Below, piece by piece: positions 1 through 32,588 of a stretch of DNA of 64,000 nt (position 1 is the first letter of the stretch; each line of letters starts with the position of its first letter). The notes below the pieces were generated by a model, which ran no database searches, was not told the DNA's origin, and saw only the letters and a list, made by a program, of their open reading frames with translations. Source of the stretch: a virus (taxonomy: Duplodnaviria > Heunggongvirae > Uroviricota > Caudoviricetes); IMG/VR virus record IMGVR_UViG_3300033121_001642, positions 1-64,000 of that record. One strand, given 5' to 3'. The translations under genes and the position numbers were made by a program.

Positions 1-252
1 TTAGCTTCAAAAAGGGTTTTTAGGGTAGACGAAGAGTTTGACCCTAACAAGTTTGTACAACACTTTGTGGATAGGTACGGCGGAAGGTGGACTTTTGAAG
101 AAGCAAAGAAAGCTTTGATAAGAGGCTTTGGCAACAAGAGCATTAATATTATGAAGAACGAGCTATCTAGGCATGTATGGCCGAAGCAATTACCTGCGGC
201 TCTAAGATGGCTTGGTCGAGAATATCGAAACAAAACAAAGAATGTGGTATAA
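1..252 (+). CDS. hypothetical protein, 5'-truncated (reading frame open from nt 1 of window; stop at 250-252)
   Basis: Frame of ORF 67..252 has no stop back to position 1; C-terminal fragment only. Confidence 0.4.
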   Translation, partial: LASKRVFRVDEEFDPNKFVQHFVDRYGGRWTFEEAKKALIRGFGNKSINIMKNELSRHVWPKQLPAALRWLGREYRNKTKNVV

Positions 253-550
253 AATCGCGCAAAACAGAAATACAGGTTTTAAGGTTGTTGGCTTTGCCAA
301 TGGCAAGGCATATTCTTTAGCCAACCGCAGCCTTCAATATAGCTTGGTTATTGGCAGCATCGTTGGAGATACCTTCTTAGGAACGACAGAACAGTTCGTT
401 ATAGACTATTATAGCAACATGACGGACGGCCAAGAGCTTTTACTGACCTACTCGTATGACGTAGCTGATATAATATCAGGCGGCGATTCTGCGAATGGCG
501 GCGAGGTAAGGGTAAGCAAGGCAAGGCTTGAAAGCGTCAGACCTCTGTAG
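242..550 (+). CDS. hypothetical protein; likely true start ATG 242 giving N-terminus MWYKIAQNRN (WY-motif family)
   Basis: ORF 212..550; internal ATG at 242 reproduces the recurrent MWYK(A/I)A N-terminus seen at 1720. Confidence 0.45.
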   Translation: MWYKIAQNRNTGFKVVGFANGKAYSLANRSLQYSLVIGSIVGDTFLGTTEQFVIDYYSNMTDGQELLLTYSYDVADIISGGDSANGGEVRVSKARLESVRPL

Positions 551-1637
551 GAGCGTCGAACATAAGATTTCGCGCAACAGGAGGAATACCCTTTTGTTGG
601 TTTTGGGGAACTTGCGTTGGAGCGTTCTTAGGCGGCAACTGCAATCCAACCTCTCGAAGGTCCAAGTCCCACTCCTCAAACTCGGTAGCATTACTAAGAA
701 GGTCCATTGCTCTTCGGATCTCGCCCTTAGAGTCTTGGGTAACGTCAGTTATATAATCAAGCATATCTCCGGTTTGGTGAGCGGAGTTGATAATAATATT
801 GATTGTAGCTAGCGCCTGACCAATAGGTTGACGTTCAACGCTCTTGAGCATATTATAAGCATTCTCTATTCTTTGTCTTGTTTGGTCTATGCCTTGGGGC
901 TTCCAGAAGCCGTACCAAATAGGGAAACATAGGAACTGAGCAAACTCTATACATATTTCCTGTAGGTCATACGTTTGAGAAGCCATCTCAAGAAAAGTTG
1001 CTAGATCGCCTCCATACCAAGTATCAAAGTATTCGGAGAAAGACATTTCTTCGTAGCGTTGTTTTATTTCAGCTTCGATTTCTTCCTCGTCTCTTTGGTC
1101 GTCAGGGTTTCTATTGTTTTCATAAATAGCATTTTCGGTATCAGCTTCTATAAGTTCATACTTTGCAGCTTCAAACAATCTACTTAATACTTGAGCTTGA
1201 CCATTCTTAACAGGTTCGTCAAGTCGATGTAACTCTGGAGATATGTTAAACTTTTTTCTTTCTCTATGAATATCGCATTCGCTTGCGATCATATCAGCGA
1301 GGGATTGCGGGGAATCTCCGTCTATTTCAAACCATTCGGTAACTCTTTTGGTTGCCCAAGTTCGAGGGGTAAGGAGTGCGTGACCTGAAAGCCAGTTTTC
1401 AAAGACTGGAACGAGTATATCCACAAAGTCTGCGATAACAGTTCTTGCAGAGCCTTCTATTTGTTGAAGGATGTTTTGTAATCTTGTTGGATGGCCTTGA
1501 AAGTTATGATGTTGTAAGTATTGGTATTTATAGGTAAGCTCATAGAGGGCGTAGAGCATGCTAGATATGGAGTCTCTATTATAGTTGACGTTCCATATAG
1601 GCGTGGCTGCAAACTTTGCTCTAGAATACCAGTTCAT
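537..1637 (-). CDS. hypothetical acidic protein (366 aa), N-terminus MNWYSRAKF (WY-motif family)
   Basis: Long ORF; start codon context ATGAACTGGTAT identical to 6704, 7582 and internal 6301. Confidence 0.6.
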   Translation of the reverse strand: MNWYSRAKFAATPIWNVNYNRDSISSMLYALYELTYKYQYLQHHNFQGHPTRLQNILQQIEGSARTVIADFVDILVPVFENWLSGHALLTPRTWATKRVTEWFEIDGDSPQSLADMIASECDIHRERKKFNISPELHRLDEPVKNGQAQVLSRLFEAAKYELIEADTENAIYENNRNPDDQRDEEEIEAEIKQRYEEMSFSEYFDTWYGGDLATFLEMASQTYDLQEICIEFAQFLCFPIWYGFWKPQGIDQTRQRIENAYNMLKSVERQPIGQALATINIIINSAHQTGDMLDYITDVTQDSKGEIRRAMDLLSNATEFEEWDLDLREVGLQLPPKNAPTQVPQNQQKGIPPVARNLMFDAPTEV

Positions 1638-1705
1638 ACTACTATGTATCGAGAAACTATACTCTAATCCTTGATTGTTGAGAAAGGAAAGGCTGTTTAT
1701 ATTTC

Positions 1706-1719
1706 GATACTATAGTATC
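1706..1719. promoter_or_regulatory. Perfect 14-bp palindrome GATACTATAGTATC abutting the ATG of the 1720 gene; contains a -10-like TATAGT. Candidate operator in the divergent intergenic region.
   Basis: Read directly: gatacta|tagtatc immediately 5' of atgtggtat. Confidence 0.35.
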
Positions 1720-2199
1720 ATGTGGTATAAAGCCGCTAACGAGACTTTTGTAACCTTATATCATGGCACCAGCCGTGAGAACTATCTTTTAATGAAGAGG
1801 TCTGGAGTTTTGAGGAAATCGGACGTACCGAACCTTACGACGAGCAAAGAGTTAGCGAAGGCGTTTGGGAAGCAGTTCTTTGAGGGCGATGAAACGGTCA
1901 TACTTTCTTTTGTACTTCCGCGAAATTTAATAGAAGGGCATGTTGGTACTGTAGTAACGACGGTTAGCGACATTCCAATGAAGTATATGAAGGGTATTGA
2001 GAAGTTTGACAGTTTGGACGCTTCGATAGGGAAGCCGGCGGACATAAGGCATAGGTTAGATATTAGTCAGCAAGTTGAGGGGTGGACGGCGGAGCAAGAG
2101 CGTATGGCGGTTGAGAAGATGAGGGAGTTGGAGAGGAATCCTAAAGCTTATATACCTGCGTGGATGAGGAACGACAATCGGTTTAGAGGAAAAGTGTGA
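1720..2199 (+). CDS. hypothetical protein; probable start at ATG 1720 (MWYKAANETF...)
   Basis: ORF 1675..2199; ATG 1720 gives the WY N-terminus; no recognisable domain. Confidence 0.55.
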   Translation: MWYKAANETFVTLYHGTSRENYLLMKRSGVLRKSDVPNLTTSKELAKAFGKQFFEGDETVILSFVLPRNLIEGHVGTVVTTVSDIPMKYMKGIEKFDSLDASIGKPADIRHRLDISQQVEGWTAEQERMAVEKMRELERNPKAYIPAWMRNDNRFRGKV

Positions 2200-4583
2200 A
2201 AAAATTAAGGAATTATACCTCTGGGAAATTTTTTCGTGCGAGCATGGCGGCGTTCGACGAGAAGGGGTTTAGCGGGATGGACTGGTTGAAGAAAGCGAGC
2301 AATATGAAGAAGAAGGCGAACGGCCCATGTCCGTTATGCGGCTCTCCCATGACAAAGAGGAAGGGGCCGTTTGGCGAGTTTTTTGGATGCAATAGATATC
2401 CTCAATGCAAAGGAGTAAGGAAGCTTAATGAAGCTCCTGCCGCTCCTCAGCAGCCGCAAGCTCCCCAACCTCGTCCGCCGCAGGCTGCTATGCCGCAGCC
2501 TGAAAAACAGAGAACATGGATTCTTGCAACAATGATTGCAACTGGCGAGCCTATTGTTGCTGCCAAGGGAGCAACAGGATGGGATTATCAAACAGAAAAT
2601 GGCGACTTTGGAACAATCCCAAACGCCGAAGTTGCAAAAACTATTAAGTCGGTTGAAGAAAACGGGCAAAAAGTTTCAGGAACTAATCCTGCAATTTTAT
2701 TCAACAAATATCATCAACTCAATCCTAAAGTTCAAGAAGCTGAACAACAGGCGGAAGCTCCTGGGCGAATACCCGCTAACAGAATAAGTCCCCAACAAAA
2801 AGATATTGAGAACTCATTTCTTAATACGCCTCAAAGCATCATGATTAATGCTCTTGCTGGATCTGGTAAAACAACCATGCTGCGTCACTTGGCAAGCTTT
2901 AAGCCGCCTGGCGAAAAGTGGCTATACTTGGTGTTCAATAAGAAGAACCAAGTTGAAGCCTCTACGGGCAAGGGTAGGTTCCCAAATGGCGTTGAAGTCA
3001 AGACGAGCCATAGTTTCCTTGGACAGGTGCTGGGTCGAAGCGCTGAGCTTAATATGGTTCAGCATACGGACCTGTGGAACGACTTTGGCGAACGTATTAC
3101 TCAAATTCTTGACCACATGATGGAAAGAGACAACACGTTTCCTCAATCTGTAAAATACGTTGCAAAGCAAACGATCAAACATCTTGCCTCTTTGAGCAAG
3201 GCTTTTGCGGTTCATCCTCAATCGCAAAACGCCGCTCAGCAAATGTCTGAGATTATCAGACAGTACAATATTGATACAGACCTGTCTCCTAACAAGGACA
3301 AAAATCCAAACGCAGCAGGGGTGAACTATGCGCCTCAAATCATAGACAAAGCTCTTGACTTGTTACATTATTGTTTGCCCGGAAATGCGCCAACTCCAGA
3401 ACTTAACTCTATGAGAGACCATGACGATACGCTATGGTACTCTGCAATCAACGATGTAAAGTGGCCTCGCTTTGACGTAGTTTTGGCAGACGAAGTTCAA
3501 GACTTCAATACTTGTCAAACGATTATGTTGCAGAAACTATCTCAGGCAGGCGCAAGAGTTATTGCGGTAGGCGACCCAAATCAAGCTATCTATATGTTTA
3601 GAGGCGCTGACGCTCAAGCTTTCCAGAAAGTTCAAGGCGTTCTTGGTCAAGCTCCAAATGGCAATGTTCCTCATGAACTTCCTGTTAACTACAGAAGCGG
3701 AAGAGCGATTATCAAATATGTCAACGAGAAAACTCATGTTAAGAACTTACAAGCCGGCAAGGACTTTGACGGTCAAGTAACCGAAGGCCGCAAGGTTGAA
3801 GAAGCTATGGGCGATATTTTCAATGAGAAGAAGCAAAGGAACAGGCTTGCGGAACAAACGGCATTTATTGCGAGAACAAACTCTCCTCTTGTCAAGACCG
3901 CCCTTGAGCTTATGAAGAATAATGTTGAGTTTGTCATTATTGGTAGAGACTTCTCGAAAGAACTTGTTGACCATATTCAGAAGATAACTGGCAAGGGCAG
4001 AATGGCGAAGAAGATTTCTATACGATTCCTTGGCGAAACAATTAATAACTTCCTAAGCGAAAGAGAAACGGCATGGAAGGGCAAGATTGCAAGAGAGTCT
4101 GAACTTAAGGATATGAAGGCAACAACCGAGGCTTTGAGCAATGTTATTGAGTATCTATCTGCTTCTGGCTATAGAGACCCTCAGCTAAATATGAGAGTTG
4201 ACGACAGTACGAGCTTTATTGAGTATATTAAGAAGAAGTTCGCCGGTGTCAACATGGATGATGCGGAAGAAGCAGAAGCCTTGAAGAAGAAAGACCCTTT
4301 ATCATATGTAACCCTTACTTCTGCGCATAGATCTAAAGGCTTAGAGTTTGATAGAGTCTTTATTCTTGAACCAAATCTCTTTCCTCATCCTAAGGCAAAA
4401 ACGCCCGAGGAACTTTTGCAAGAAGAGAATGCAAAGTATGTTGCATATACAAGAGCGATGAAGAGTTTGCATGTTCTTGCTCCAAGCAAGGAAGAAAAGA
4501 AAGAAAGAAGAGAGGCCTCTTCCAAGGCTGGTTGGTATATCAAGGCAAAGAGTACCAAAAAGAAAAGGAAGAAGAAAAAGTGA
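2196..4583 (+). CDS. UvrD/PcrA-like SF1 DNA helicase with N-terminal topoisomerase-type C4 zinc ribbon and P/Q-rich linker; C-terminus GWYIKAKSTKKKRKKKK
   Basis: CPLCGS..GCNRYPQCKG Zn ribbon; Walker A ALAGSGKTT; motif II LADEVQDFN; motif III GDPNQAIYMFRGA; motif IV NYRSG; motif VI TSAHRSKGLEFDRV; GTG start overlapping upstream stop (GTGTGA). Confidence 0.85.
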   Translation: MKKLRNYTSGKFFRASMAAFDEKGFSGMDWLKKASNMKKKANGPCPLCGSPMTKRKGPFGEFFGCNRYPQCKGVRKLNEAPAAPQQPQAPQPRPPQAAMPQPEKQRTWILATMIATGEPIVAAKGATGWDYQTENGDFGTIPNAEVAKTIKSVEENGQKVSGTNPAILFNKYHQLNPKVQEAEQQAEAPGRIPANRISPQQKDIENSFLNTPQSIMINALAGSGKTTMLRHLASFKPPGEKWLYLVFNKKNQVEASTGKGRFPNGVEVKTSHSFLGQVLGRSAELNMVQHTDLWNDFGERITQILDHMMERDNTFPQSVKYVAKQTIKHLASLSKAFAVHPQSQNAAQQMSEIIRQYNIDTDLSPNKDKNPNAAGVNYAPQIIDKALDLLHYCLPGNAPTPELNSMRDHDDTLWYSAINDVKWPRFDVVLADEVQDFNTCQTIMLQKLSQAGARVIAVGDPNQAIYMFRGADAQAFQKVQGVLGQAPNGNVPHELPVNYRSGRAIIKYVNEKTHVKNLQAGKDFDGQVTEGRKVEEAMGDIFNEKKQRNRLAEQTAFIARTNSPLVKTALELMKNNVEFVIIGRDFSKELVDHIQKITGKGRMAKKISIRFLGETINNFLSERETAWKGKIARESELKDMKATTEALSNVIEYLSASGYRDPQLNMRVDDSTSFIEYIKKKFAGVNMDDAEEAEALKKKDPLSYVTLTSAHRSKGLEFDRVFILEPNLFPHPKAKTPEELLQEENAKYVAYTRAMKSLHVLAPSKEEKKERREASSKAGWYIKAKSTKKKRKKKK

Positions 4584-6700
4584 GTTGGTTTACTCGCATA
4601 GCTGACATCAACTATCAGTCCTTGGGTTTTGACCAGGCTGCTGAATCTTATTTAAGAAGCTTAGACAATTGGGACCGAGGAACCGCTGTTGAATTATCAA
4701 AACTAACCGGAGCGAAAAGGGCTAATCAACTAGAGTTCCACCTCAATAACTACAAAGGATTTTTGTCTAATATTCAGGGTAAGATACCGAATCGTTTCTT
4801 ATTTCCAGTATATGGGTGGCTAAGTCGTGGCGTAATAAGATTACCTGAAGATTTGGGTAGATTAGCAAGAGCTTTGGCTGTTTTTACGCAACAAAATAAC
4901 AAGTTTCAGCTAAAGAATATACAGCAGTATCCTTCTCTTGGAGACCTTGAAGAAGCTGTTAGTAAGGTTACTGGCGTTAATGAAGAAAGCAAGCGCCAAG
5001 TTGCCAAAAACATAAAGATGCAAGGTAGTAGAGAGATCTACCGAGACGAAGAATGGCGCGTTATTGAGATGACGACTCCCGAAGCTGTTTGCGAACTTGG
5101 CAAGGGAACAAAGTGGTGTACAAACGCTGATAATGACGGTCTTGAAAATGCTCAAATGTATTTGAAGAGCGGTCCTTTGTTCTTGTTTTTGCATAATGAG
5201 GGCGGCAAGTGGCAGAAGTACGCTCAAGCAACGAAAGACCTAGATCAAGTAATGGACATTCTTGATAAGCCCATAAATGAGCCTCCTCAGTCTTTTATTG
5301 AAGTTCTCAAAAAGCTTGTTCAGCTTGGTCATATTAAAGACGAGAATTTCTTTGGCAATTATGCTAAAAAGGTTTCTTATAAAGGCGCTGACGTTGATTT
5401 TGCAAACTATTTTGAAAAGCAACTTAAAGAAAATGACGGAGATTTTCCTTCTTATGCCTTTAGAGATATAATTGATTATGTAGAAGAGTTTGGAAGGCTG
5501 GGCGCGGTTGAAGAAAAGATTATCTTTAAGCCAATTCTTTCTGACAAAAAGATGATTAAAAACTATGGAGTGACTAACGGTTCTCGTATTGAAGAATATC
5601 TTGACAAAGTTCTTCAACGAGGTCTTCGTTGGACAGAAGAGCGTCATGAGGGTCATATTGCAAACTCAACATATGCTCACGATTACTGGAAAGACAGATA
5701 CTCAAACTATAATTTTGGAGAAGGCAAGCCCGGAAATGGAGATTATTCTGTTTGGCCTGAGTATGAGGCTGCGATGCTTAGCAACCCTCGTCGCGCCGAC
5801 GAGTTGGTTAGCTATCTTTGGAACCTAAACGGAAACAAGAGGGCAGAAAAACGATTTGAAGATTACTTACTCAAGGCCGGTCAAGAAAGTCAAGATTATG
5901 AACATGCTATAAACTACGCTAAAAACTGCAATTTTAGATGGTCTGAACTTGAAAAGGCTATTATTCAAAGCGGTAAATTGTGGGATATGTACCAGTATGC
6001 TAAAGAGACTATAAACGGTAGATGGCCTGAAGTAGAGCCTTATTTTCTCAGCGACAAATGGGGAGGACTATCTGATGCTTTGTATTACGCTAGAGACGTT
6101 CTAAAACAAAGATGGCCTGAGCTTGAACAAAAAATCATGGAACTCAAAAATGGATGGGCTGCCGGTCAGTATGCCGTTTTGATTATGAAGGCAAGGTGGC
6201 CTGAAATGGAGCCTTATATTTTGTCTGGCAAAGACAAAGCGGTTCCAATCTATTATGAAAAGAACCTTGGAATATCAACAAGCAAAAATGCCCGTTCCGA
6301 AATGAACTGGTACAAAAAAGCTCAAAGACAGAAGGTTTATGATCTAGACGATAGCTACACTAATATTGGTCATTCTGGTCTTAGCGAAGGCATATATGGA
6401 TGTAACTACATTTGGGTTTTTTACAAGAACGGCTCGTTTAAACATACAAAAGAAACAAGCCTAATAAACAGTCACGAGATATGGAAAATTAGAGGCGAGA
6501 TATCAAGCGATTATATTTACAAAGGAAGAGTTGATATTTGTAATAAAATTGCAAGTCTAACAGCTTGCGATGTATGTTTTGAATCAATTGGAGTTCCCAC
6601 GAACGCTGCGAGAGAAATGTTTTGCATCAGAATGAAAGAAGTATGTAAAAACGCTATTTATCAAGTATTTGGAAATGATATTACAATAAGAGAGTTTTAG
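4580..6700 (+). CDS. hypothetical protein with three tandem ~40-aa 'RWPE(V/L/M)E' repeats; probable GTG start at 4580 ((M)SWFTRIADI...) overlapping the UvrD stop (GTGA). Contains an internal MNWYKKAQ motif ~135 aa from the C-terminus.
   Basis: ORF 4532..6700; GTG 4580 gives a WY-family-like N-terminus SWF; repeats RWPEVEPYFL / RWPELEQKIM / RWPEMEPYIL. Confidence 0.6.
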   Translation: MSWFTRIADINYQSLGFDQAAESYLRSLDNWDRGTAVELSKLTGAKRANQLEFHLNNYKGFLSNIQGKIPNRFLFPVYGWLSRGVIRLPEDLGRLARALAVFTQQNNKFQLKNIQQYPSLGDLEEAVSKVTGVNEESKRQVAKNIKMQGSREIYRDEEWRVIEMTTPEAVCELGKGTKWCTNADNDGLENAQMYLKSGPLFLFLHNEGGKWQKYAQATKDLDQVMDILDKPINEPPQSFIEVLKKLVQLGHIKDENFFGNYAKKVSYKGADVDFANYFEKQLKENDGDFPSYAFRDIIDYVEEFGRLGAVEEKIIFKPILSDKKMIKNYGVTNGSRIEEYLDKVLQRGLRWTEERHEGHIANSTYAHDYWKDRYSNYNFGEGKPGNGDYSVWPEYEAAMLSNPRRADELVSYLWNLNGNKRAEKRFEDYLLKAGQESQDYEHAINYAKNCNFRWSELEKAIIQSGKLWDMYQYAKETINGRWPEVEPYFLSDKWGGLSDALYYARDVLKQRWPELEQKIMELKNGWAAGQYAVLIMKARWPEMEPYILSGKDKAVPIYYEKNLGISTSKNARSEMNWYKKAQRQKVYDLDDSYTNIGHSGLSEGIYGCNYIWVFYKNGSFKHTKETSLINSHEIWKIRGEISSDYIYKGRVDICNKIASLTACDVCFESIGVPTNAAREMFCIRMKEVCKNAIYQVFGNDITIREF

Positions 6701-6703
6701 AGC

Positions 6704-7585
6704 ATGAATTGGTATAAATTATCCAACGGATTTGTTATAGAAGGCCCTTTTGACGGTAGCGGGCATATGACATCTGACGATCCGTCCATTATCTTTGAAG
6801 CAAAAATAGGCAAAGAGTCTATTGGCTATATTCTTGTTGTTATGCCAAAAAACAAGAACCCTTATGTTGGTCAAGTTACTGTTAAACCAGAAAATAGGCT
6901 AAATGGAGTTGCTACGGCTTTGTATAATAGAGTTGATTATTATTTACGAGAAAACGGTATTTTGCCATTAAATCCGTCTAGAGACCTATCTCCTGGTAGT
7001 CGTAGAATTTGGGATAAGAGATTAGGCAAAGGGATTGGCAAAGAAAGCCAAAGACTTTCTCCGCAACAAATCAATTTATATCATAATTTCAAATCGCCGT
7101 CTGGCGTTAAGCTTATTGGCAGCGGGGTGAGCGCTATTTTTCAAGTTCCAGGCATAAATCAAACACTCAACGGCGCTCAGCTTATGAATCAAGTTATTGG
7201 AAGAATACAAAAAGTTCTTGTACAAAATAATGTTCACACTATAGATACAAGTCCCGTCTCCCGATCTGACGCTATCGGTTTGGCTATTAGTTCTGAACCT
7301 GGAATCATTCATGTTGATATAGCAAAAATATTTAATACGATCAAAAATCAAGCTTTACCCTCTATTACTCAGCTTGATGGCGTAGAGGTTGATAAAGATA
7401 TTCAAAATGATATAATTGATAAAATTTCAAACTATATAACAAATCAATTGGCAAACACCACGGCGCATGAATCAAAACATAATATGGATTATTTTAATAG
7501 TTTTCCAAAAGGTCGGTTTGAATCTTCTGAAAGCGGTGCAGAGGGTTTTGGTAATCAAATTTCAAATCAATATTTCAAACTATGA
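6704..7585 (+). CDS. hypothetical protein, N-terminus MNWYKLSNGF; possible GNAT-like fold (VTVKPENRLNGVATALYNRV)
   Basis: ORF; GNAT motif-A-like R-x-x-G-x-A; WY start. Confidence 0.6.
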   Translation: MNWYKLSNGFVIEGPFDGSGHMTSDDPSIIFEAKIGKESIGYILVVMPKNKNPYVGQVTVKPENRLNGVATALYNRVDYYLRENGILPLNPSRDLSPGSRRIWDKRLGKGIGKESQRLSPQQINLYHNFKSPSGVKLIGSGVSAIFQVPGINQTLNGAQLMNQVIGRIQKVLVQNNVHTIDTSPVSRSDAIGLAISSEPGIIHVDIAKIFNTIKNQALPSITQLDGVEVDKDIQNDIIDKISNYITNQLANTTAHESKHNMDYFNSFPKGRFESSESGAEGFGNQISNQYFKL

Positions 7586-10500
7586 ACTGGTATTACGATC
7601 AAATTATTAAAGAAAGCGCAATGGGAGACAATTCTGTTGAAGCTTTTCTTGCGCGAATTGGAGTTCCCGAAGAAACAATAAGTTATGTTACAACCATAAC
7701 AAACCCAGAGTTGAAGCAGCAAGTTGTTGGTTATTTGCGCAAGTTCCCTCAAACTCCTTCGGTATTGTTGATGGACAAACTTAGGCCGCAAAATCAACCT
7801 CAGCAAAACCCAAATACTCCTCAAGAAGTTCAACTTGCCAATAGGTTTCAGAACCTTGAGTTTCAGAAGTGGTTACTTGTTGCTTTGAGAAAAGCAAGAA
7901 ATGAATATCAGATCAAAAAGAAGCCTGACGGCATTGCTCTTACAGGAGACGGATATTCAATTCCAGGTCGAGGAAATGTCAACTTTACTTTGATACCAGA
8001 TATTGCTCAGAGTATATTTGACTGGTATGTAAGAGGCGTTCTTCCTGCAAGGCAAGCTTTTCAAGCTGCTCAAACACCAGAAGAGCAGGCTGTTGTTGTC
8101 AACGAATACGGTGTAACGAATGCAAATACCAACCTTGCTGGGCTAACGCTTGACCAAGCGGATCGGTTTGCAGAAAACTGGCATGATGTTATTTCTGGAG
8201 AAGGCGAAGGGCTTGAATATTACGGCGAAAAAAGAGAAGACATAGTATATGGCCCTCAATGGAGTAGACCAGAATGGGCTGGTTGGACAATTAAACAAGT
8301 TGTAACAAAGAACAACCTAAGAACTGAAGGCGGCAAGATGGGACATTGTTTTGCTGAAGGTTCTTTAATAAGAACCAAAAAAGGATTTATTCCTATTGAA
8401 GATATAGAAACAGGAGATTTTGTTCTTGTTGAAGATGGAAGTTTTCAAAAAGTAACAGAAAAATTTGAAAGAGAATATAATGGAGAAATTATAAAATTAG
8501 AAACAAGACTTGGGGTTGAACCTGTTTTTGTTACGCCAGAACACTTGTTTTTATCCTTAAAATCAAACCATAAAGGCAACAAATCTTGTAAACTTCATAC
8601 TTGCGGATCATTGTGCAGAAATAATAAACCAGAAGAAAAACACAATATTGAATGGCAACCTATTGAGTCCTTAAAAGATTCGTATATTTTATCCAGAATT
8701 CCAAAAGAGTTCGAAGATATAAATGAACTTATCATACCTAATCATTGTATTGTAAACAAATCAAAAGGCGATAAAAAATACAAATGCGATAAAGATTTAT
8801 TGTGGATTTTTGGCATATACATAGCAGAAGGATCAAATGACGGTGATAAACTCAGTTTTGCTCTTGCAAAAAAAGAAACAGACTATGCTAATAAAATAAT
8901 ATCTTTCTTCTCAAAGGCGGGATTTTCTGCTCGTATAAGAAAAGATAAAGAAAATTACGGCGGTCTTGTTGTTTTAGTAAATAGTAGAATGCTGTGCAGG
9001 TGGTTCTCTGAAATGTTTGGATGTGGTTGTAATAATAAAAAAATACCCTCAAAATTACTTAATTTACCTAATGATAAGATTTTTCATATTTGGCAAGGAA
9101 TATTTGACGGCGATGGATGTAAAAACAGAAACATATTACATCAAACCTCAAAAGAACTTGCTCTACAAATGACAGAGATATCTCTTAGGCTTGGTGGTTT
9201 GCCTTCTTTGTCAAGAAAAGATAATAGCAAAAGAAACAGAAAAACAGCATATGTTCTTGAAGGAGCAGATGCTAGAGTTGAAAGAAATTCTCGGAAAAAA
9301 CACTTTTGGATACACAAAAAAGAAGTTTTAGTAAAACCAATTTGCCATGAAAAAGTAAATTTTAAAGGCAAAGTTTACAACATAGAGGTCGAAGGTATCC
9401 ATTCTTATGTTGTTCAGCACCTTGTTGCTCATAATTGCGTCGGAAGCTATTGCGACGATGTTTTGAAAGGTAATACGAGAATTTTCTCGCTTCGAGACCC
9501 GTCTAATACTCCGTATGTAACGATGGAAGTTGACCCTAAAAGCTGGACTTTTAGACAAATTTATGGCGACGGGCCTAAAACAGGAAACGTTGAGCCAAGC
9601 GACAACTCAAAAGCGATGATTGGCGAGTGGATGAAGACTCTTAAGGGCGCTTCTATTGAGGGCATGAATGACTTTGATTACAGCGATCTTAGTTACGGAA
9701 GCATGGACGACGATCTTGAAAGAGCTATATACAAAGGAGCAGAAGGTTATGGCTTGCCCATTTCTCTTACGGGATGGGAGTATCAAGACGCATACGAAGC
9801 TGTTTACAACAAGCTCAATAATGACCGAGGATATCGCAATGACGGCGGATATCAAACGCATCATGTTTCAAAGGTTCTAGCTAGAGCCGCTGTTGACTCT
9901 GATATACAAAAACTAAACGAAGGGCTTATTGATGAAGCTCGAATGAAAAAGATAGCGCTAGATTGGGCGCATAAGACTCCAAAGCATCATGTTATGAAGA
10001 AAGAGCATTTTGACAGAATGACTCCTGAAAACAAAAGAGAGTATCTGAAGGAATATTTACCAGAAGCTGCCGCTTCAGTTAAAAGAGAAACAGATCAAGC
10101 TCTAAAAGACAAATGGCAAGGATGGGAAAGATATACGAGTCCTCAAGCTGTTGAACAAAAGACGCTTGAAAGGGCTTATTACAATATGAGTCAGGCTAAA
10201 GAGTTTGATTATTCCAAGCTAAAAAGCTTTGATCAACTAGACGAGAAGAATCAAAAAAGGTTTATGGCTCAAGTTCTTGACGCTCAATTTCAAATTGCGC
10301 AAATTTATGAAAAGCGGCAAGAAAACGACGAAAATTTCTACGATTATTATAATGATGATTATTTAGAGCTTCCAGAAGAGCCCGTGGAAGATGACTTTTC
10401 AGATCCCGAAGAATATCAAAAAGCTGTAAGCGAATGGGAAGACGAAAGGCAAAGAATTGAAGACGAAGCCGCCGACTCTCATAGGAAGGAAAACCTTCCA

Positions 10501-11457
10501 TATTGTCTTGACGACGCCGTTATAGAAGACGTTGAAAAAACTCTCATGCAAACTCAGATTAAGCTACCAAGATGGTTTAGTAAATACTTCAACAAGAAAC
10601 AAGATAATAGAAGTCATTATCCAACAATACTTTGGACTCTTGAGGGGATTGCTCGTAAAAAGAAGGAAGCGATCAAAGGGAAAAAGAAACGAAGAGCAAG
10701 CGGTTGGTATAATATTTGTAAGTTTTCAGAGTCTTTTTTAGTTAAAAAAGTGACAGATATTTATGCCATTACTTTTGACCAAGCAAAAAGAAGCGACCTA
10801 ATTGAGGACGGAAACAAGTTTAAATCTAACGGTTCTTATACTTTTGTTGATGATAGTAAAATGATTTGCAGGGACGAAGATTATAATATGTGGGTCGAAG
10901 ACGTTTCTGATTTTGATAAAAGATACAAAATTAAAGACGGCAAAAAGAAACAAATCAGGAGTCCTTTCAAGGAAGGTTTTTGGCAGAGATACGAACCAAC
11001 AGAAAATGCAAAAAATATTGTTGAAGAAGTTTCTGAAGACGAAGTTTTATTAAAAGAAGATAAAAACAACGGAGACGAATGGGAAATAACCATAGAAGAG
11101 TATGGAAAAAACTACAAGAAAGCGAATGGAGGGTTTTCGCCGGACGAGACCAAGAGCAATATAGAGATTGAAGATTCAGAGTGCATCAACAATCATCGTT
11201 GGCGATCAGACATGATCATGCGAGGTTACGACACTCAAACGAACGAGCTTGTTGGGCAACTGAGCTATAGTGTATTTGGCAACGAGTTGCATATTAGCAT
11301 GATTGAAATTGTTCCAAAATACCGAAGGCAGGGGGTTGGGACTCTTTTGATTAAAAAGATGAAAGAAGAAAATCCTGGCTTAGTAATAAAGCCGGGCCTC
11401 ATGACAAATGACGGCTACTCTTTCTTTAGAGCTTTAAAACGCAGAAGAGTCATATAA
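7582..11457 (+). CDS. large hypothetical protein (1291 aa including intein), N-terminus MNWYYDQII; LAGLIDADG intein inserted after ..EGGKMGH; C-terminal GNAT-like acetyltransferase motif (IVPKYRRQGVGTLLIKKM); highly charged central region
   Basis: ORF overlaps upstream stop as ATGA; intein blocks and GNAT motif read from translation. Confidence 0.75.
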   Translation: MNWYYDQIIKESAMGDNSVEAFLARIGVPEETISYVTTITNPELKQQVVGYLRKFPQTPSVLLMDKLRPQNQPQQNPNTPQEVQLANRFQNLEFQKWLLVALRKARNEYQIKKKPDGIALTGDGYSIPGRGNVNFTLIPDIAQSIFDWYVRGVLPARQAFQAAQTPEEQAVVVNEYGVTNANTNLAGLTLDQADRFAENWHDVISGEGEGLEYYGEKREDIVYGPQWSRPEWAGWTIKQVVTKNNLRTEGGKMGHCFAEGSLIRTKKGFIPIEDIETGDFVLVEDGSFQKVTEKFEREYNGEIIKLETRLGVEPVFVTPEHLFLSLKSNHKGNKSCKLHTCGSLCRNNKPEEKHNIEWQPIESLKDSYILSRIPKEFEDINELIIPNHCIVNKSKGDKKYKCDKDLLWIFGIYIAEGSNDGDKLSFALAKKETDYANKIISFFSKAGFSARIRKDKENYGGLVVLVNSRMLCRWFSEMFGCGCNNKKIPSKLLNLPNDKIFHIWQGIFDGDGCKNRNILHQTSKELALQMTEISLRLGGLPSLSRKDNSKRNRKTAYVLEGADARVERNSRKKHFWIHKKEVLVKPICHEKVNFKGKVYNIEVEGIHSYVVQHLVAHNCVGSYCDDVLKGNTRIFSLRDPSNTPYVTMEVDPKSWTFRQIYGDGPKTGNVEPSDNSKAMIGEWMKTLKGASIEGMNDFDYSDLSYGSMDDDLERAIYKGAEGYGLPISLTGWEYQDAYEAVYNKLNNDRGYRNDGGYQTHHVSKVLARAAVDSDIQKLNEGLIDEARMKKIALDWAHKTPKHHVMKKEHFDRMTPENKREYLKEYLPEAAASVKRETDQALKDKWQGWERYTSPQAVEQKTLERAYYNMSQAKEFDYSKLKSFDQLDEKNQKRFMAQVLDAQFQIAQIYEKRQENDENFYDYYNDDYLELPEEPVEDDFSDPEEYQKAVSEWEDERQRIEDEAADSHRKENLPYCLDDAVIEDVEKTLMQTQIKLPRWFSKYFNKKQDNRSHYPTILWTLEGIARKKKEAIKGKKKRRASGWYNICKFSESFLVKKVTDIYAITFDQAKRSDLIEDGNKFKSNGSYTFVDDSKMICRDEDYNMWVEDVSDFDKRYKIKDGKKKQIRSPFKEGFWQRYEPTENAKNIVEEVSEDEVLLKEDKNNGDEWEITIEEYGKNYKKANGGFSPDETKSNIEIEDSECINNHRWRSDMIMRGYDTQTNELVGQLSYSVFGNELHISMIEIVPKYRRQGVGTLLIKKMKEENPGLVIKPGLMTNDGYSFFRALKRRRVI
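8347..9435 (+). mobile_element. Intein with LAGLIDADG homing-endonuclease domain (363 aa) inside the 7582..11457 gene
   Basis: Starts CFAEGSLIRTKKGFIPIEDIETGDFVL (block A), LAGLIDADG-like LWIFGIYIAEGS and IWQGIFDGDGCK, ends ..VVQHLVAHN followed by +1 Cys (CVGSY). Confidence 0.8.
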
Positions 11458-19400: not shown

Positions 19401-19564
19401 AAAATGGCATTGAGTTTGGCGCAAAGGATAATGATTTCGGACAAATTGCGATTGACTTCAATGACGCTGTTATCGAAAGAGAAATTGAAGGCAATGACGA
19501 CGAAGAAAATCCTCGCCAAGCATCCACTTGGTATGATCGAATGATATTGGCAGGTTCTGTGTAA
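16433..19564 (+). CDS. SNF2-family (SF2) helicase/ATPase with N-terminal P/Q-rich low-complexity region; C-terminus ..STWYDRMILAGSV
   Basis: Motif I LGDKTGTGKT; motif II LILDEAHLIKN; C-terminal helicase lobe with KGGTGVSL and QTEGRAFR (motif VI). Confidence 0.85.
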   Translation: MNNYFDITKIAQNMNEPIAPAPQPVAQPQPEPIVQPEAAAPVEQNQAQPLANQPPVQPPGQPPVARPQRGGNRPLIFVKEAAFGNWMSIVVEVPSMTKEEFNSLQSLAKAYIQSTKKPNGTYPTWATWVNKAKKGALQIADFKLFSKTKDMEGRFVNIGTTEAPFFTQILDKLSEMGFDTAQIQRYEKQNDPAVLVEQQQQPPPVEQKNKVEVSKPEGWQTLIVKFERNNDIRNFIVNNRIGGRWDPAYIAWRFDLRGDPPILPSRLESMSEFMRQKDFDTTELDAAIKEYKNELEKNKENLKDPLKTLVVNDATRNTKFLVSINFPRTPQLIREMEDYVKFSFPSKGDLTDLKLDPVPENYHTKPPKQLPNGRWEPSGMRLDQQNKWYAYGSFDDFFRFGALIKSRGWDVTNLRTTLSGLLRSKALERTRYSGELDGYEVKDENGRQLKDAKGNPQFDYERFYKDVEEITGDRAKLFDKQKDGVRWLYERGNAILGDKTGTGKTLTTLVAAAMRLKQSGGRCLIITLKTTQIQWANEIQNKLGEDPANISFNPGDNKKWTIITYPNISAAPEKNNAGVILQPNGSPVLKPRWKSKQQIIDGIFNTQFTALILDEAHLIKNETSGASQIMALIAPKVPFKWGASATSAANTAIDVHNILSIVGHTLGEISTRDFNKEFVGRKSTIRDFADPIKAREILALQEEKAYNLRKWLTLSGAYLSRSQKAINPNLPEHVIDEQYISEEDFDIRAFARDFENIKAQYGGNAGAALAVLTKQRVLIAQMKVPHTMALAKEILDRGEKVLVFSNFRTCCQSLYAGLDAHLKAQDPDFEVVRIMGDDNGAAIMNAVAQFKDPENPARAMVIAAKKGGTGVSLENSTQNVIMNDFDWSPYIAEQTEGRAFRITNVMPVNTKYMVVKGPDGRLSPDEVFYKFVRSKIKIAQIIQNLDSEAEEYILNGLNDAKIQAEIAKARAADMEADVQLGKDLNEMFAENGIEFGAKDNDFGQIAIDFNDAVIEREIEGNDDEENPRQASTWYDRMILAGSV

Positions 19565-22950: not shown

Positions 22951-23173
22951 AGGCCAGGTCGTAGCAACAACCAGCTTCGTCAATAAGCTTGGCGGCGGCA
23001 TGAATGTTACCTTCAAAGCCCCAAAGGGTAAAAGGTTTGCTTTCGTATTTCTCGGAGTAGAAGACGACGAGAACCCGATTGAGCCAACTGTTATCCTGAA
23101 TCAAATGGGTTGGTTCCAAAAGAAAAGCGCCGAACCAAAGGCGACTAAGAAAAAGACAAAAGCAAAGAACTAA
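22925..23173 (+). CDS. small basic hypothetical protein
   Basis: ORF only. Confidence 0.35.
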   Translation: MSSALSLNRGQVVATTSFVNKLGGGMNVTFKAPKGKRFAFVFLGVEDDENPIEPTVILNQMGWFQKKSAEPKATKKKTKAKN

Positions 23174-27260: not shown

Positions 27261-27262
27261 TG

Positions 27263-29624: not shown

Positions 29625-30280
29625 AAAATCTTGATGGCTTTTTCAAATATCTTATCTACATTGTTTTGCGAAGAATACCATCCCTGAGGGCAGCCGCTTG
29701 AGAAATCCTGAAGATATTTCTCATACGCCTCATGCCATTTTTTTCGGTCATTTTCAGAAGCAATAAGAACTTCTTTGTTTTTGAAGCCCGTTAGAATTTC
29801 AGCCTTATTTTCGGCTTCTTTTCTAACCTGTTTCCATTCTTCGATTGTTTCTGTTATTGGCCCCCAGTGTAACAACTTCTTATCCTTTGAGACTGCCCAA
29901 AAGTCAATGGAAGGCATTTTGTGGCTTAGTATTGATTTCGTAAAGAGAACCGCTGCCGGATTGAATCCTAAGTCTTCTAGCTCCTCAGAAGACATTTTTA
30001 GAGCGCCATTGAAGCTGTTATCAATAGCGAGTAAATCACCAGAATCAAAACTGCATTCAATAAGAATATCTACGTCTTTGATTCTGTGATCTTTCTTGTT
30101 GAAGTTTTCAGCAAGAGAGCCCCAGGCGTATATGCTCTTAACTTGTTTGAAATTAGAAATACTCTTCGAAGCCTCTTTTAGATAAGGTTGAATGTCTCGT
30201 ATTCTTGGGATTGCTTTTTCGTACCATTTCATATGTAGGCTTTCAATATAGGCTTTCAATATAGTATTCTCCTTACACAT
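29621..30280 (-). CDS. hypothetical protein
   Basis: ORF only. Confidence 0.55.
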   Translation of the reverse strand: MCKENTILKAYIESLHMKWYEKAIPRIRDIQPYLKEASKSISNFKQVKSIYAWGSLAENFNKKDHRIKDVDILIECSFDSGDLLAIDNSFNGALKMSSEELEDLGFNPAAVLFTKSILSHKMPSIDFWAVSKDKKLLHWGPITETIEEWKQVRKEAENKAEILTGFKNKEVLIASENDRKKWHEAYEKYLQDFSSGCPQGWYSSQNNVDKIFEKAIKIL

Positions 30281-30378
30281 TATTTTCGGTATTCCACTTC
30301 TTTTTCCTCTTTACTTGGGTGTATCTCTTCTCTTGTGCAATAGAAATGCCGAATGATGGAATAAACGAAGAGGTTTAT

Positions 30379-31278
30379 ATGAATAACGAAAACATACTGT
30401 ATCCAGAGCAAGAAAAACCGCATAAAGCCTTCGAAGTTCACAAGGTTTTAGACGCTGGTTTTATTCGTCTTGTTGATTCGATGCCTAGTCCAACAGACCC
30501 ATACAGTATTCCTGCCGACGCTGCCATTGTTCAGGCTGCGAGGGTCTCTTATGGAAAAGGCACGAAGGCCGTTAATGAAGATAAGGGTCTTATTAGCTAT
30601 CTCATGAGGCATCGTCATACAACTCCGTTTGAGATGGTTGAGTTCAAGTTTCACGCAAGAATGCCTATGTTTGTTGCTCGACAATGGATTCGTCATCGAA
30701 CAGCCAATGTCAATGAGTATTCGGCTCGCTACTCTGAAGTTCCTGATCTTTGTTATATACCTGAACCCGAAAGAATAATGGGACAGAGTAAGACAAACAA
30801 GCAAGCCTCTGACGGAACCTTATCTCAAGACACTAAAGATTCTTTTATTGGCAGACTACAAACCGTTGCTTCTGAAACATATAGCGATTATCAGGAGTTT
30901 TTAGCTCAGGGCGTTTCGAGAGAAACAGCCAGGATGTTTCTGCCGGTTGCGTATTACACAGAATGGTATTGGAAGATCGATCTTCATAATCTATATCACT
31001 TTATTGCATTAAGATATGACGCTCACGCTCAGTACGAAATCAGAGTATATGCTGAGGCTATGTATAATATTTGCAAAGAACTCGCCCCTATAGCTACAGA
31101 GGCTTTTGAGATTCATAGAATGAAATCTGTGCATATTTCTCATGACGAAGTTGATATTTACAAGTCTCTAATGAGCGTAGAGAACCTAAACGATAAACTC
31201 AATGTTGCTTTTGACGCAAAAGGATGGAGTCCTCGAAGAAGAAAAGAGTTTATGGATAATCTGTCGAAGATTATGTAA
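30379..31278 (+). CDS. thyX: flavin-dependent thymidylate synthase ThyX
   Basis: RHRHTTPFEMVEF ... RHRTANVNEYSARYS (ThyX RHR..S.RY signature); GAAGAGG RBS before ATG 30379. Confidence 0.85.
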   Translation: MNNENILYPEQEKPHKAFEVHKVLDAGFIRLVDSMPSPTDPYSIPADAAIVQAARVSYGKGTKAVNEDKGLISYLMRHRHTTPFEMVEFKFHARMPMFVARQWIRHRTANVNEYSARYSEVPDLCYIPEPERIMGQSKTNKQASDGTLSQDTKDSFIGRLQTVASETYSDYQEFLAQGVSRETARMFLPVAYYTEWYWKIDLHNLYHFIALRYDAHAQYEIRVYAEAMYNICKELAPIATEAFEIHRMKSVHISHDEVDIYKSLMSVENLNDKLNVAFDAKGWSPRRRKEFMDNLSKIM

Positions 31279-31279
31279 T

Positions 31280-31843
31280 ATGAATTTTATTGTAGATCTA
31301 GAAGCAACTTGTTGGGAAAATCCAAGAATTCCTGATCTTAATGAAATTATAGATATTGGTATAATTGTTTGCGATGATAGGTATGAGAGAATTGATTCAT
31401 GGGAAAGTCTTGTTAAACCCAAGTTCAACACTAGATTGTCTGTCTTTTGTAAGAGACTAACTTCTATAAAGCAATCAGACGTTGATTCTGCTGAACATAT
31501 TGAACAGGTTTTTGCTAGGTTTTGCAAGTGGTGTAAAGAAAACGGTTACGATCCAACTAATCATGTGTGGTATACATGGGGTAGTTGGGATCTAGGCTGT
31601 CTAATTAGCGATTGCGAGAGAAATAAAATCTCTTTCCCTTTTGGGGAACATCGAGATCTAAAAACAATATATATGCAAAGAAGAAACTTATCTTCTCGCG
31701 AAAAATGCAATGTTAAGGACGTTATAATTAGGGAGAATCTTGGAGACGGTTTAGGCCTTCATAGGGCCATAACAGACGCTACTGCTGCTGCGAAGATTGC
31801 AAAGTTGGTGTTTGAACTTGATTCTTCGCAAGATCTTTCATGA
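31280..31843 (+). CDS. DnaQ-like DEDDh 3'-5' exonuclease
   Basis: Exo I VDLEAT; Exo II WGSWDLGCL; Exo III HRAITDATAAAKI. Confidence 0.75.
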   Translation: MNFIVDLEATCWENPRIPDLNEIIDIGIIVCDDRYERIDSWESLVKPKFNTRLSVFCKRLTSIKQSDVDSAEHIEQVFARFCKWCKENGYDPTNHVWYTWGSWDLGCLISDCERNKISFPFGEHRDLKTIYMQRRNLSSREKCNVKDVIIRENLGDGLGLHRAITDATAAAKIAKLVFELDSSQDLS

Positions 31844-32588
31844 CTTTAACATGATGTTTTGATCTATTTCCAACCTGTCCATACCAGACGCTTTTTTCCA
31901 TAAGGTTTGCAGCTTTTGCGTATTCTTTATTAACTATAGCTTTGCCTGTATTTATAAATTTTGATATAGTTGGACCGCCCATATTAAAAGACATATCAAC
32001 GCAAATAAGTTGAATTTCTTTTGGTTGACCGCTTAGGTTTGGAATCCATTTTTGAGCGTCAGAAATAGCAGTTTTCAGATTAACTCTGAACAGCTTGGAC
32101 ATTTGATCTTGACTAAGCGTTTCTTTTCCGGATATTAGACCTTCTTTGGTTGCTCCAATACTCTTAAGAATGGAATCTGCGTCTGGCCTTTCTAAATTGA
32201 ATCCGCAACCAACGGTCCATATTCCTTTACTATCTTTATAAGCCCTAGCTATGAACCCGCCTTCAAAAGGCGCAATAAATGATTCAAGCTCGTTTTCGGA
32301 AACCAAACCTTGAGACGCTTGTTGTGTCTGTTGTTGAAGTTGAGGGGCTTGTTCGGTTTTTACTGGTTCAAGTTTAGTTTGAAACTGTTGATTTTGAACC
32401 TCTTTTATAGGGGCTTGCTGTTTATTTTCAGGAACAGAAGGCTGGCCCATTAGGCTAAAACTAAGAGGTAAAGCTCCGAGGGCTCCTCCCATACCAAGTC
32501 CCTTACGAACGTCTTTCCAGTTTACGTCCGCTTCCTTGTGAAGGGTTAGATTCTTAGCTTTGATGTACCATCCGCTTTCTTGTTGCAT
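31779..32588 (-). CDS. GH24 (T4-type) lysozyme with N-terminal extension: MQQESGWYIKAKN.. followed by a Gly/Ala-rich weakly hydrophobic SAR-like segment and a Q-rich linker; possibly virion-associated lysin or SAR endolysin
   Basis: FEGGFIARAYKDSKGIWTVGCGFN catalytic region; ORF 32660 start is TTG; ATG 32588 preferred; alternative ATG (MGGALGALPL) with AAGGGA RBS. Confidence 0.8.
   Translation of the reverse strand: MQQESGWYIKAKNLTLHKEADVNWKDVRKGLGMGGALGALPLSFSLMGQPSVPENKQQAPIKEVQNQQFQTKLEPVKTEQAPQLQQQTQQASQGLVSENELESFIAPFEGGFIARAYKDSKGIWTVGCGFNLERPDADSILKSIGATKEGLISGKETLSQDQMSKLFRVNLKTAISDAQKWIPNLSGQPKEIQLICVDMSFNMGGPTISKFINTGKAIVNKEYAKAANLMEKSVWYGQVGNRSKHHVKVMKDLAKNQVQTPTLQSSQQQ

Follow-up and report, generated by a model that had tools for sequence, protein, structure and literature searches.

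In bacteriophage T4, the packaged ADP-ribosyltransferase (Alt) and the internal proteins are targeted by N-terminal peptides of 10-19 residues; this capsid-targeting sequence (CTS), in which residues 4 and 7 are key, suffices to route proteins to the scaffolding core, and its cargo includes an anti-restriction protein (PMC9026906). Family 1 encapsulins use targeting peptides, usually at the C-terminus and on some cargo at the N-terminus, with the inner face of an HK97-fold shell as their destination; the cargo genes often adjoin the shell gene, and the peptide consensus is SDGSLGIGSLKRS, with a G-S-L core (PMC8346489). In polyvalent proteins, effector domains are fused to one another, and the products are proposed to be packaged and injected (Iyer et al. 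2017, PMC5512222, which is also the source of our domain list and in which the phrase 'N-terminal motif' is not used). Here we describe a short tag built on the pair tryptophan-tyrosine (W-Y) in a stretch of 64,000 nucleotides from a huge tailed phage genome (positions 1 to 64,000 of IMG/VR record IMGVR_UViG_3300033121_001642; the whole of this stretch is called the window below). The motif exists on many otherwise unrelated proteins, is enriched at their ends, is selected at the level of the peptide, is modular and occurs in one clade of phages only; it looks like a previously undescribed protein address label.

The window has zero nucleotide matches among GenBank phages. Its relatives are present in IMG/VR, on contigs of 124-494 kb; the genomes of this clade were sampled as fragments, with mechanical gene calls, and the fetched loci of related or control contigs carry L-numbers (L001, L002, L018 and so on). 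Identity to the UvrD helicase of the window is 93% in L001, 65% in L002, 59% in L004 and L005, 54% in L003, 45% in L006 and 37% in L007.

We evaluated enrichment with protein starts set mechanically to the first ATG. W-Y falls at residues 2-4 of six window proteins, compared with 0.22 expected (Poisson p = 1.4e-7), and is the strongest outlier among all 400 dipeptides, so the excess at protein ends that an earlier annotation made from the letters alone (the sequence-only reading) had been unable to count is indeed there. Using the pattern M-x(0-2)-W-[Y/F], we find tags on 6 of the 53 window proteins (0.34 expected), on 17 of 194 proteins from relatives fetched without regard to the tag (1.2 expected) and on 41 of 1214 from loci around the capsid gene (3.1 expected). 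The three control sets are at chance level (about 0.5 expected in each), with 1 of 157 proteins in distant UvrD-bearing phages, 0 of 131 in two other huge phages and 1 of 154 in the first 100 kb of phage G. The tag itself was found neither in the two other huge phages nor in the first 250 kb of phage G, the full extent of that control, nor, beyond the chance level, in the distant UvrD-bearing phages. Across the sampled regions of the clade, the tagged share of proteins is roughly 3-11%. For the C-terminus, the excess of the strict motif in the window alone is weak (2 compared with 0.5-0.7 expected), and we accept the C-terminal tag because it is conserved in orthologues. Homologues from related phages keep the tag at the same termini at 37-65% identity, with both residues and codons changed.

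A logo built from 103 distinct N-terminal instances reads M-N-W-Y-K-K-A-Q. Counting from the tryptophan (position 0, 100%), Met occupies position -2 (89%), Asn (72%) or Ser (11%) position -1, Tyr (89%) or Phe (11%) position +1, Lys position +2 (62%), Lys, Arg, Ile or Leu position +3, Ala position +4 (55-62%) and Gln (35%) or Lys (20%) position +5; beyond +5 the information is close to zero (about 0.1-0.4 bits). In C-terminal and internal copies the Trp is preceded by Gly, Ser, Asn or Thr and the core is unchanged, and the tag can be represented by the 12-mer peptides MNWYKKAQNKKT and ..SKGWYRKAATTY. With the first 12 residues taken off, BLAST sorts 94 tagged proteins into 53 families, 34 of them singletons. 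The idea of a short linear motif carried by unrelated proteins at either terminus is thereby borne out, and the original estimate of at least ten proteins, right about the recurrence, proves to be an understatement, given more than 100 distinct N-terminal instances across the clade. An N-terminal domain of common ancestry was also considered and was rejected, since similarity stops at +5 and the 94 carriers belong to 53 families.

Synonymous codons of the tag vary at every degenerate site, the DNA upstream of the ATG is unconserved, and a DNA pattern for W-Y-[K/R]-x-A occurs 73 times in frame with a long open reading frame (ORF) and 5 times out of frame, with 5 matches also in a composition control. 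The peptide GWYIKAK is correctly described as being shared by the C-tail of the helicase and the N-tail of the lysozyme with different codons (TGGTATATCAAGGCAAAG at 4533 and TGGTACATCAAAGCTAAG at 32570 on the minus strand), and the wider counts uphold the conclusion once drawn from this pair, that selection acts on the peptide and not on the DNA. Many copies do read TGGTATAAA or TGGTATAAT, and a Shine-Dalgarno sequence is mostly missing at tagged genes, as might be the case if the shared element were a nucleic-acid signal (an enhancer of translation initiation, an extended -10-like TGGTATAAT element or a site spanning the start codon where a regulator binds); however, an initiation role is impossible for the C-terminal and internal copies, the W-F variants (TGGTTY) disrupt the -10-like sequence, and the variation in codons, the unconserved upstream DNA and the frame specificity together led us to reject a signal at the DNA or RNA level, which we regard as close to refuted and extremely improbable. 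The candidate promoter word GATACTATART is not enriched. As a separate observation on translation signals, tagged genes such as those at 1720, 7582, 1637 (minus strand) and 32588 (minus strand) mostly have no Shine-Dalgarno sequence, and several untagged genes (23236, 33746, 57330 and 62361) have GGAGG-like sites.

The window holds 16 copies of the pattern [N/S/G/T]-W-[Y/F]-[K/R]-x-A-[Q/K], given here with their coordinates, strand and carrier.

242..262, plus strand: N-terminal tag MWYKIAQ of a 102-residue protein (242-550); the orthologues in L001 and L002 begin MWYKFAQ.
1614..1637, minus strand: N-terminal tag MNWYSRAK (MNWYSRAKF) of a 366-residue protein (537-1637) whose sole Pfam signal is a weak Cdc6 lid match, below the Pfam cut-off; orthologues start MNWFRLAK (L002), MRWFELAK (L004) and MNWYQILK (L016).
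1720..1740, plus strand: N-terminal tag MWYKAAN of a 159-residue protein (1720-2199), five database homologues of which begin MWYK[ATL]AN or MNWYYLAN.
4530..4550, plus strand: C-terminal tag GWYIKAK, followed by a poly-Lys tail, of the UvrD-like helicase (2196-4583), which ends ..AGWYIKAKSTKKKRKKKK before its stop codon; orthologues have KGWYIKAK (L002) and NGWYVKAK (L004).
4580..4603, plus strand: N-terminal tag (GTG)SWFTRIA of a 706-residue protein (4580-6700); orthologues have NWFVRIAD (L002) and MRWFTKLS (L004).
6302..6325, plus strand: internal tag MNWYKKAQ, heading the last module (about 130 residues) of the 4580-6700 protein; kept as NWYKKAQ (L001), GWYKRAD (L002) and TWYKRCQ (L004).
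6704..6727, plus strand: N-terminal tag MNWYKLSN of a protein with GNAT and HExxH modules (6704-7585), whose start is unambiguous because a stop codon lies two codons upstream.
7582..7605, plus strand: N-terminal tag MNWYYDQI of a 1291-residue protein with intein, PcfJ-like and GNAT parts (7582-11457), the ORF having zero start codons upstream of 7582; L001 has MNWYYGQI.
10702..10722, plus strand: internal tag GWYNICK (RASGWYNICKF) of the 7582-11457 protein, following a basic linker and about 160 residues upstream of the C-terminal GNAT part; kept as SGWYDLCK (L001), SGWYARIN (L002) and NGWYSVAG (L004).
13620..13643, plus strand: N-terminal tag MSWYSIIR (MSWYSIIRS) of a 930-residue protein (13620-16412); orthologues have MNWYVAAR (L002) and MGWFSTAK (L004).
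15051..15071, plus strand: internal copy GWFKKVQ (EGWFKKVQ) of the 930-residue protein, with the counterparts GWFKRVE in L002 and AWFKKIH in L004; of all copies this is the one least securely identified as a tag, since it may lie within a folded region.
16380..16400, plus strand: C-terminal tag GWYRKAA (..KGWYRKAATTY before the stop at 16412) of the 930-residue protein; orthologues end SSWYRKLGVFG (L002), LGWYRKSSIIY (L004) and YNWYRKRISA (L023).
19526..19546, plus strand: C-terminal tag TWYDRMI (with ..LAGSV at the end of the protein) of the SNF2 helicase (16433-19564), which ends ..STWYDRMILAGSV before its stop codon; the orthologue in L116 (59% identical) ends ..SSWYDKASIYG.
23108..23128, plus strand: near-C-terminal copy GWFQKKS (MGWFQKKSAEPK..), followed by a basic tail, of an 82-residue protein (22925-23173); weakly supported, being found in the window and in the 93-94% identical relative only.
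30209..30232, minus strand: probable N-terminal tag MKWYEKAI of the 29621-30280 protein, taking an internal Met as the start; homologues read ..MKWYERAIPKIGD (L116) and SSWYEKCMPKIKD (L018), and because the L018 homologue has no Met here the segment may belong to the fold.
32553..32573, minus strand: tag GWYIKAK of the lysozyme (31779-32588), at a distance of six residues from its start, the N-terminus being MQQESGWYIKAKN; a Gly/Ala-rich membrane segment and then a Gln-rich linker follow.

Every terminal and internal peptide quoted in the sequence-only reading was found at the position given there, and three copies are added to its list (15051, EGWFKKVQ; 23108; and 30232 on the minus strand, MKWYEKAI). 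The peptide IVGWYCGQ of the giant fibre protein, which it had included, departs from the consensus after W-Y and is treated as chance.

A tag either follows the initiator Met directly, stands 8-20 residues before the C-terminal end or marks the junction of fused modules, and in every case compared it lies outside the boundaries of Pfam domains (AAA_33 starts at residue 13 and DnaJ at 22; the domain end and the tag position are 760 and 783 for UvrD, and 902 and 1033 for the Helicase_C domain of SNF2). The tag of the UvrD helicase shifts place, being C-terminal in the window and N-terminal in L003, with one tag at each end in L002 and L004, and the N-terminal, internal and C-terminal copies of the 930-residue protein are all kept in three lineages. 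Internal copies head fused modules: the terminal module (about 130 residues) of the 4580-6700 protein has a tagged gene of its own in L018 (7827-8270), and, in parallel, the copy at 10702 precedes a C-terminal GNAT domain while the neighbouring gene at 6704 encodes a tagged GNAT protein. Two or three tags occur on several proteins, with basic low-complexity linkers beside the tags, and on some contigs 4-7 consecutive genes all begin MNWYKKA.

A degenerate DNA pattern for MNWYKKA[Q/K] has 17 matches in IMG/VR, on 11 contigs and at 13 loci, where the estimated chance number is well under one; in bacterial genomes it has 3 matches in 596 Gb, which is about chance, and one of these corresponds to a phage-like array whose contig was binned with a Halanaerobium metagenome-assembled genome (MAG). 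All of the tagged contigs in a capsid scan (about a dozen) have an HK97 major capsid protein of about 290 residues, with an identity of 65% or more to the query copy. This capsid protein has 114 relatives in IMG/VR, and Bacillus phage G gp27 (6WKK) is both its only PDB match and its nearest cultured relative, at 55% identity. The tag is a clade-wide system of uncultured phage-G-like huge phages. INPHARED holds zero relatives of the tagged 930-residue or 366-residue proteins; the strings WYKKA, WYKIAQ, WYRKA and WYKRA were found as peptides in none of the papers searched; and in the multi-omics paper on phage G the term 'N-terminal' is absent and the four uses of 'motif' refer to DNA sites.

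The carriers of the tag are diverse. In the window they comprise the UvrD helicase, the SNF2 helicase, a GNAT protein, the intein/PcfJ-like/GNAT protein, the lysozyme and several other proteins without a significant family match; in relatives we find an AAA_33 kinase and ART-PolyVal, GNAT, 2H/Acb1-like, PolyA_pol head domain, SLT, DnaJ, Toprim and GcrA-like helix-turn-helix-repeat proteins. The helicases, lysin and large unknown proteins named at the outset are thus present, but that list was too narrow, as it omitted GNAT, ART-PolyVal, kinases, DnaJ and others. The nucleotide-metabolism enzymes of the window (ribonucleotide reductase, ThyX and dUTPase) and its peptide deformylase are untagged. 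The tagged GNAT protein at 6704-7585 has a C-terminal HExxH module (..AHESKHN.., read directly from the sequence), which may be a zincin-like peptidase of polyvalent-protein type. The same module recurs as the C-terminus of a different protein in L004 (13589-15784), behind an internal tag. A further tagged family, made of repeated GcrA-like helix-turn-helix units, lies downstream of the capsid gene in L048, L056, L057 and L060, and its members end in a conserved ..YNKYM.IINNHTYPDEVQQ.

The most economical reading of these sequences would be a shared docking or targeting role. Because the carriers span unrelated activities, a receptor that serves localisation, packaging or turnover is favoured over a part in one pathway. 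The tag is local, stands at either terminus or in linkers, requires Trp with Tyr or Phe after it, favours a small residue at +4 and has N, S, G or T ahead of the Trp, all of which suits a short docking peptide bound in a protein groove; the preference for a small residue at +4, for Q or K at +5 and for N, S, G or T before the W likewise argues for a specific receptor over generic stickiness. N, S, G and T are the classical helix N-cap residues, and we infer that the tag binds a protein as a short helix and that the head is its destination. Trp and Tyr favour the membrane interface, which counts for the alternative that there is no protein receptor and that the aromatic pair and lysines bind anionic membrane or nucleic acid directly, as basic-aromatic membrane-targeting sequences do. 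The tag is basic, is sometimes followed by poly-Lys (for example ..WYIKAKSTKKKRKKKK before the stop codon) and adjoins a membrane helix in both tagged lysins; six residues, however, are too short for stable binding alone, most N-terminal tags have no further basic tract, and the conserved small residue at +4, the Q or K at +5 and the residue before W are hard to derive from affinity for lipid or DNA, and we consider direct binding distinctly unlikely.

We propose that the tag is a portable docking peptide with the core W-[Y/F]-[K/R]-x-A-[Q/K], preceded by N, S, G or T, and that all copies would bind one common receptor, our preferred candidate being the assembling head, either at its scaffold/protease core or on the inside of the conserved HK97 capsid protein. 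Procapsids would in that case take up the tagged enzymes of counter-defence and nucleic-acid metabolism, which would reach the host along with the DNA, in a mode that we liken to that of the T4 CTS or an encapsulin targeting peptide. On this view, the tag would be the trans counterpart of the cis fusion seen in polyvalent proteins. We put the probability that the tag is a docking peptide that loads its carriers into the head at about 0.35. The more specific version, in which a 'zip code' at either end of the protein loads a large, changeable set of enzymes into giant heads for co-injection, as in an encapsulin but in a real virus capsid, is tentative and somewhat doubtful.

Co-packaging fits because the carriers overlap with the polyvalent effector set and because, on about a dozen contigs, tagged genes lie downstream of the capsid gene; co-packaging or ejection, as first suggested from the letters, is compatible with the data but unproven. 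The domains shared with the polyvalent set are ART-PolyVal, the zincin-like HExxH module, SNF2, 2H, lysozyme and a pol-beta-type nucleotidyltransferase. At about 12 of 80 capsid loci, tagged genes follow the capsid gene at a distance of 0.1-7 kb, in many cases with matching orientation. A protein of 1600-2500 residues is also encoded in the clade's head module (3220-9234 in L096, with an equivalent in most of L033-L112); it consists of an N-terminal prohead protease, long acidic or Gly-rich low-complexity tracts, Zn-ribbon-like parts and a conserved C-terminus of about 50 residues (..SLF[ST]L..[KR]N..A...LRK.); the acidic tracts of this protease-scaffold fusion could be a site for the basic tag, judging from composition. 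Phage G has no such giant protease-scaffold gene at the equivalent position. A portal or scaffold receptor, which had also been named among candidate hubs, is possible. Up to 10 kb from the capsid gene, all structural head proteins lack the tag, an observation that we weigh neither for nor against loading into the head. An extra shell of encapsulin type was considered and rejected: the 290-residue HK97 protein beside some of the tag arrays is the true capsid protein, as the match to gp27 and the module with a prohead protease indicate. In L024 (999-1600), two capsid-protein fragments each stand behind a twin-arginine-like hydrophobic N-terminus (M.RRSF[LF]K..), and in L028 (3770-8000, a Solobacterium MAG) the sequence WYKKAQATKKEL is repeated within two adjacent large ORFs, probably as an unrelated repeat.

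Compared with the described systems, the tag would, judging from its sequence and carriers, work most like the T4 CTS and the encapsulin peptides; it belongs to neither class and is not a clamp or PCNA motif. The T4 CTS (on IPI-III and Alt) resembles it as a very short peptide on the N-termini of unrelated proteins, but is N-terminal only, is a propeptide of 10-19 residues cut at a defined site by the prohead protease and serves about four proteins; the W-Y tag has a different sequence and a core of six residues, has conserved C-terminal and internal copies, abuts folded domains (for example a P-loop strand) with no conserved cleavage motif and is borne by several per cent of the sampled proteins (the 3-11% given above). 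The sequence of the T4 CTS is MKTYQEFIAE, in which residues 4 and 7 are aromatic. The encapsulin peptide is likewise short and placed at the C- or N-terminus of its cargo; its consensus SDGSLGIGSLKRS, with the G-S-L core, differs from the tag logo [N/S/G]-W-Y-K-K-A-Q, and encapsulins enclose one or a few cargo types in a cellular nanocompartment, whereas the shell of the tag clade is a true phage capsid in a head module with a prohead protease. Adjacency to the shell gene, as among encapsulin cargo genes, is seen for tagged genes within 7 kb downstream at a dozen or so of 80 capsid loci and not in the lineage of the window. Polyvalent proteins fuse 2-15 effector domains, whereas in the tag clade mostly single-domain, separate genes share a peptide, although multi-module tagged carriers exist (7582-11457, 4580-6700, and in L020 and L026). 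The C-terminal coat-binding helix of P22-type scaffolding proteins is short, basic and amphipathic, docks inside the capsid and has been used for foreign cargo; it differs from the tag in size (a helix-turn-helix of some 30 residues), in being confined to one protein and in leaving the head before DNA packaging. The beta-clamp motif QL[SD]LF and the PIP box of PCNA are motifs of 5-8 residues that are found N-terminally, C-terminally or in linkers on many proteins and serve one hub. The tag does not match their consensus (QL[SD]LF, QxxLxxFF), only Met-Asn precedes the W in its N-terminal copies, so that residues further upstream are not needed, and the carriers of clamp and PCNA motifs belong to replication and repair, whereas those of the tag include lysozyme/SLT, DnaJ, ART-PolyVal, GNAT and 2H/Acb1-like proteins. 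A hub in the replisome, such as the clamp, SSB or an FxxA site of Rad51 type, which the tag may resemble, was dropped in view of the lysins, DnaJ, ART, GNAT and 2H proteins among the carriers.

Several observations weigh against the head as the destination. In the lineage of the window (L096, L104 and L112), the tagged cluster is not near the capsid gene but roughly 75-95 kb off by contig coordinates, and in L048 a strong terminator follows the capsid gene, so that co-transcription of tagged genes with head genes is unproven. The logo of 103 instances shows no conserved cleavage motif after the tag, unlike the T4 CTS. No receptor was identified among the candidates examined, the clade has no cultured member, and no cultured relative that carries tags was found, with none in the first 250 kb of phage G. 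A structure prediction for the tagged 159-residue protein has a mean pLDDT (predicted local distance difference test) of 36, from an alignment of five sequences; nothing was drawn from it, and a helical tag is unsupported. DnaJ, Toprim and the protein with the weak Cdc6 lid match are not typical injected proteins. Finally, both tagged lysins have a membrane segment, and the one in the window lies beside lysis-like genes; the lysins count here because a membrane-anchored endolysin is odd cargo for a head. They are the only two of about 100 genuine carriers with a membrane segment, and both are ordered as tag, membrane helix, Gln-rich linker and catalytic domain, although the catalytic domains differ (in the L023 lysin, MNWYKKAQ, the helix and the Gln-rich linker lead to an SLT domain).

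The lysis-like cluster itself (31779-34810) comprises the tagged lysozyme, whose Gly/Ala-rich membrane segment resembles a signal-anchor-release (SAR) segment, a 111-residue multi-pass membrane protein (33224-33559) and a 354-residue protein with a lipobox and more membrane helices (33746-34810); homologues of the latter two adjoin the tag array in L018.

In the lysins the tag would be on the cytoplasmic side, beside the membrane helix, which suits docking to a hub outside the virion where tagged enzymes would gather, such as a 'factory' for replication or takeover, a microdomain of the membrane or a condensate that forms with nucleic acid during infection. Such a hub is also consistent with the many carriers that act on DNA or RNA (UvrD, SNF2, Toprim, GcrA-like proteins, kinases and CCA/poly(A) polymerase-like proteins), with the untagged state of the ribonucleotide reductase, ThyX, dUTPase and peptide deformylase of the window, and with the occurrence in several cases of two or three tags per protein and of basic linkers, an arrangement suited to multivalent assembly. 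The ART-PolyVal, 2H/Acb1-like, GNAT and DnaJ carriers, by contrast, have no obvious need for co-localisation with DNA. The SPFH protein, put forward as a hub by the sequence-only reading, was found in the 93% identical relative only and is missing from the syntenic stretch of the tagged relatives, so it is not supported as the receptor, which counts against the hub outside the virion as well. To our knowledge, no compartment or hub protein has been described for phage-G-like phages, which we count against this alternative, and we regard it as doubtful.

The tag might, alternatively, be a signal for degradation or unfolding that is read by an AAA+ machine (of the phage, or a ClpX-like protein, FtsH or Lon of the host) for timed removal or remodelling. 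Its place at the extreme N- or C-terminus fits, as does the presence of two classic AAA proteins in the window and of ClpP-like and ClpX-like proteins in phage G. ClpX signals are reportedly terminal, and one N-terminal class is said to follow the order 'polar-hydrophobic-hydrophobic-basic-hydrophobic', to which the aromatic-aromatic-basic pattern of the tag is similar. FtsH can begin at cytoplasmic tails of membrane proteins, which would suit the lysins. Most copies are terminal, but the internal ones are kept across relatives (in three lineages) and would be superfluous for a terminal degron; the conserved Ala at +4 and Q or K at +5 are unlike known ClpX or Lon tags; N-terminal tags run into folded domains after 3-4 linker residues; and phage G, with its ClpXP-like genes, has no tags in 250 kb, so that tag and unfoldase do not co-occur. 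One of the two AAA+ proteins put forward at first as candidate hubs, that at 11802-13418 (the second, at 39263-40720, lies beyond the stretch covered by the loci of the relatives), fares no better as unfoldase or as receptor: its family occurs in N4-like phages and in the tag-free huge phages LR756511 and LR756500, and the protein itself was found solely in the 93% identical relative and is missing from the syntenic stretch of the relatives that keep the tag. We rejected it as the receptor, and consider a degradation signal unlikely.

Whichever destination applies, the motif sorts huge-phage proteins of unassigned role into 'addressed' and 'not addressed' from sequence alone and is a cheap marker for recognising contigs of the clade. 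If the destination is the head, the tag would explain how giant capsids are stocked with first-wave effectors without polyvalent fusion, and would offer a transplantable tag of roughly eight residues for packaging and delivering arbitrary proteins; a factory, membrane site or protease as the destination would mean that the tag reveals an undescribed organising principle of megaphage infection.

Beyond the tagged genes, the window encodes a sigma-70-type factor, the ribonucleotide reductase (with an intein), ThyX, dUTPase, peptide deformylase, a macro domain, the two classic AAA proteins, the SPFH protein, an SMC/ABC-like ATPase, a protein of 3412 residues and a tail-fibre-like gene. Inteins (Hint and LAGLIDADG) interrupt the PcfJ-like domain of the tagged 1291-residue protein (7582-11457) and the ribonucleotide reductase (40774-44421); the UvrD helicase of L004 (9992-13585) also has an intein, whereas the window copy has none. 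The untagged SMC/ABC-like ATPase (23236-24246) is 69% and 60% identical in relatives where its neighbour genes reach just 43-59%, an unusually strong conservation for its region. Three very large ORFs of the window (45043-55281, 3412 residues; 55294-57318, 674 residues; and 57330-61562, 1410 residues) have zero matches in PHROG, and the small gene that follows them (62361-62891) resembles tail-fibre proteins.

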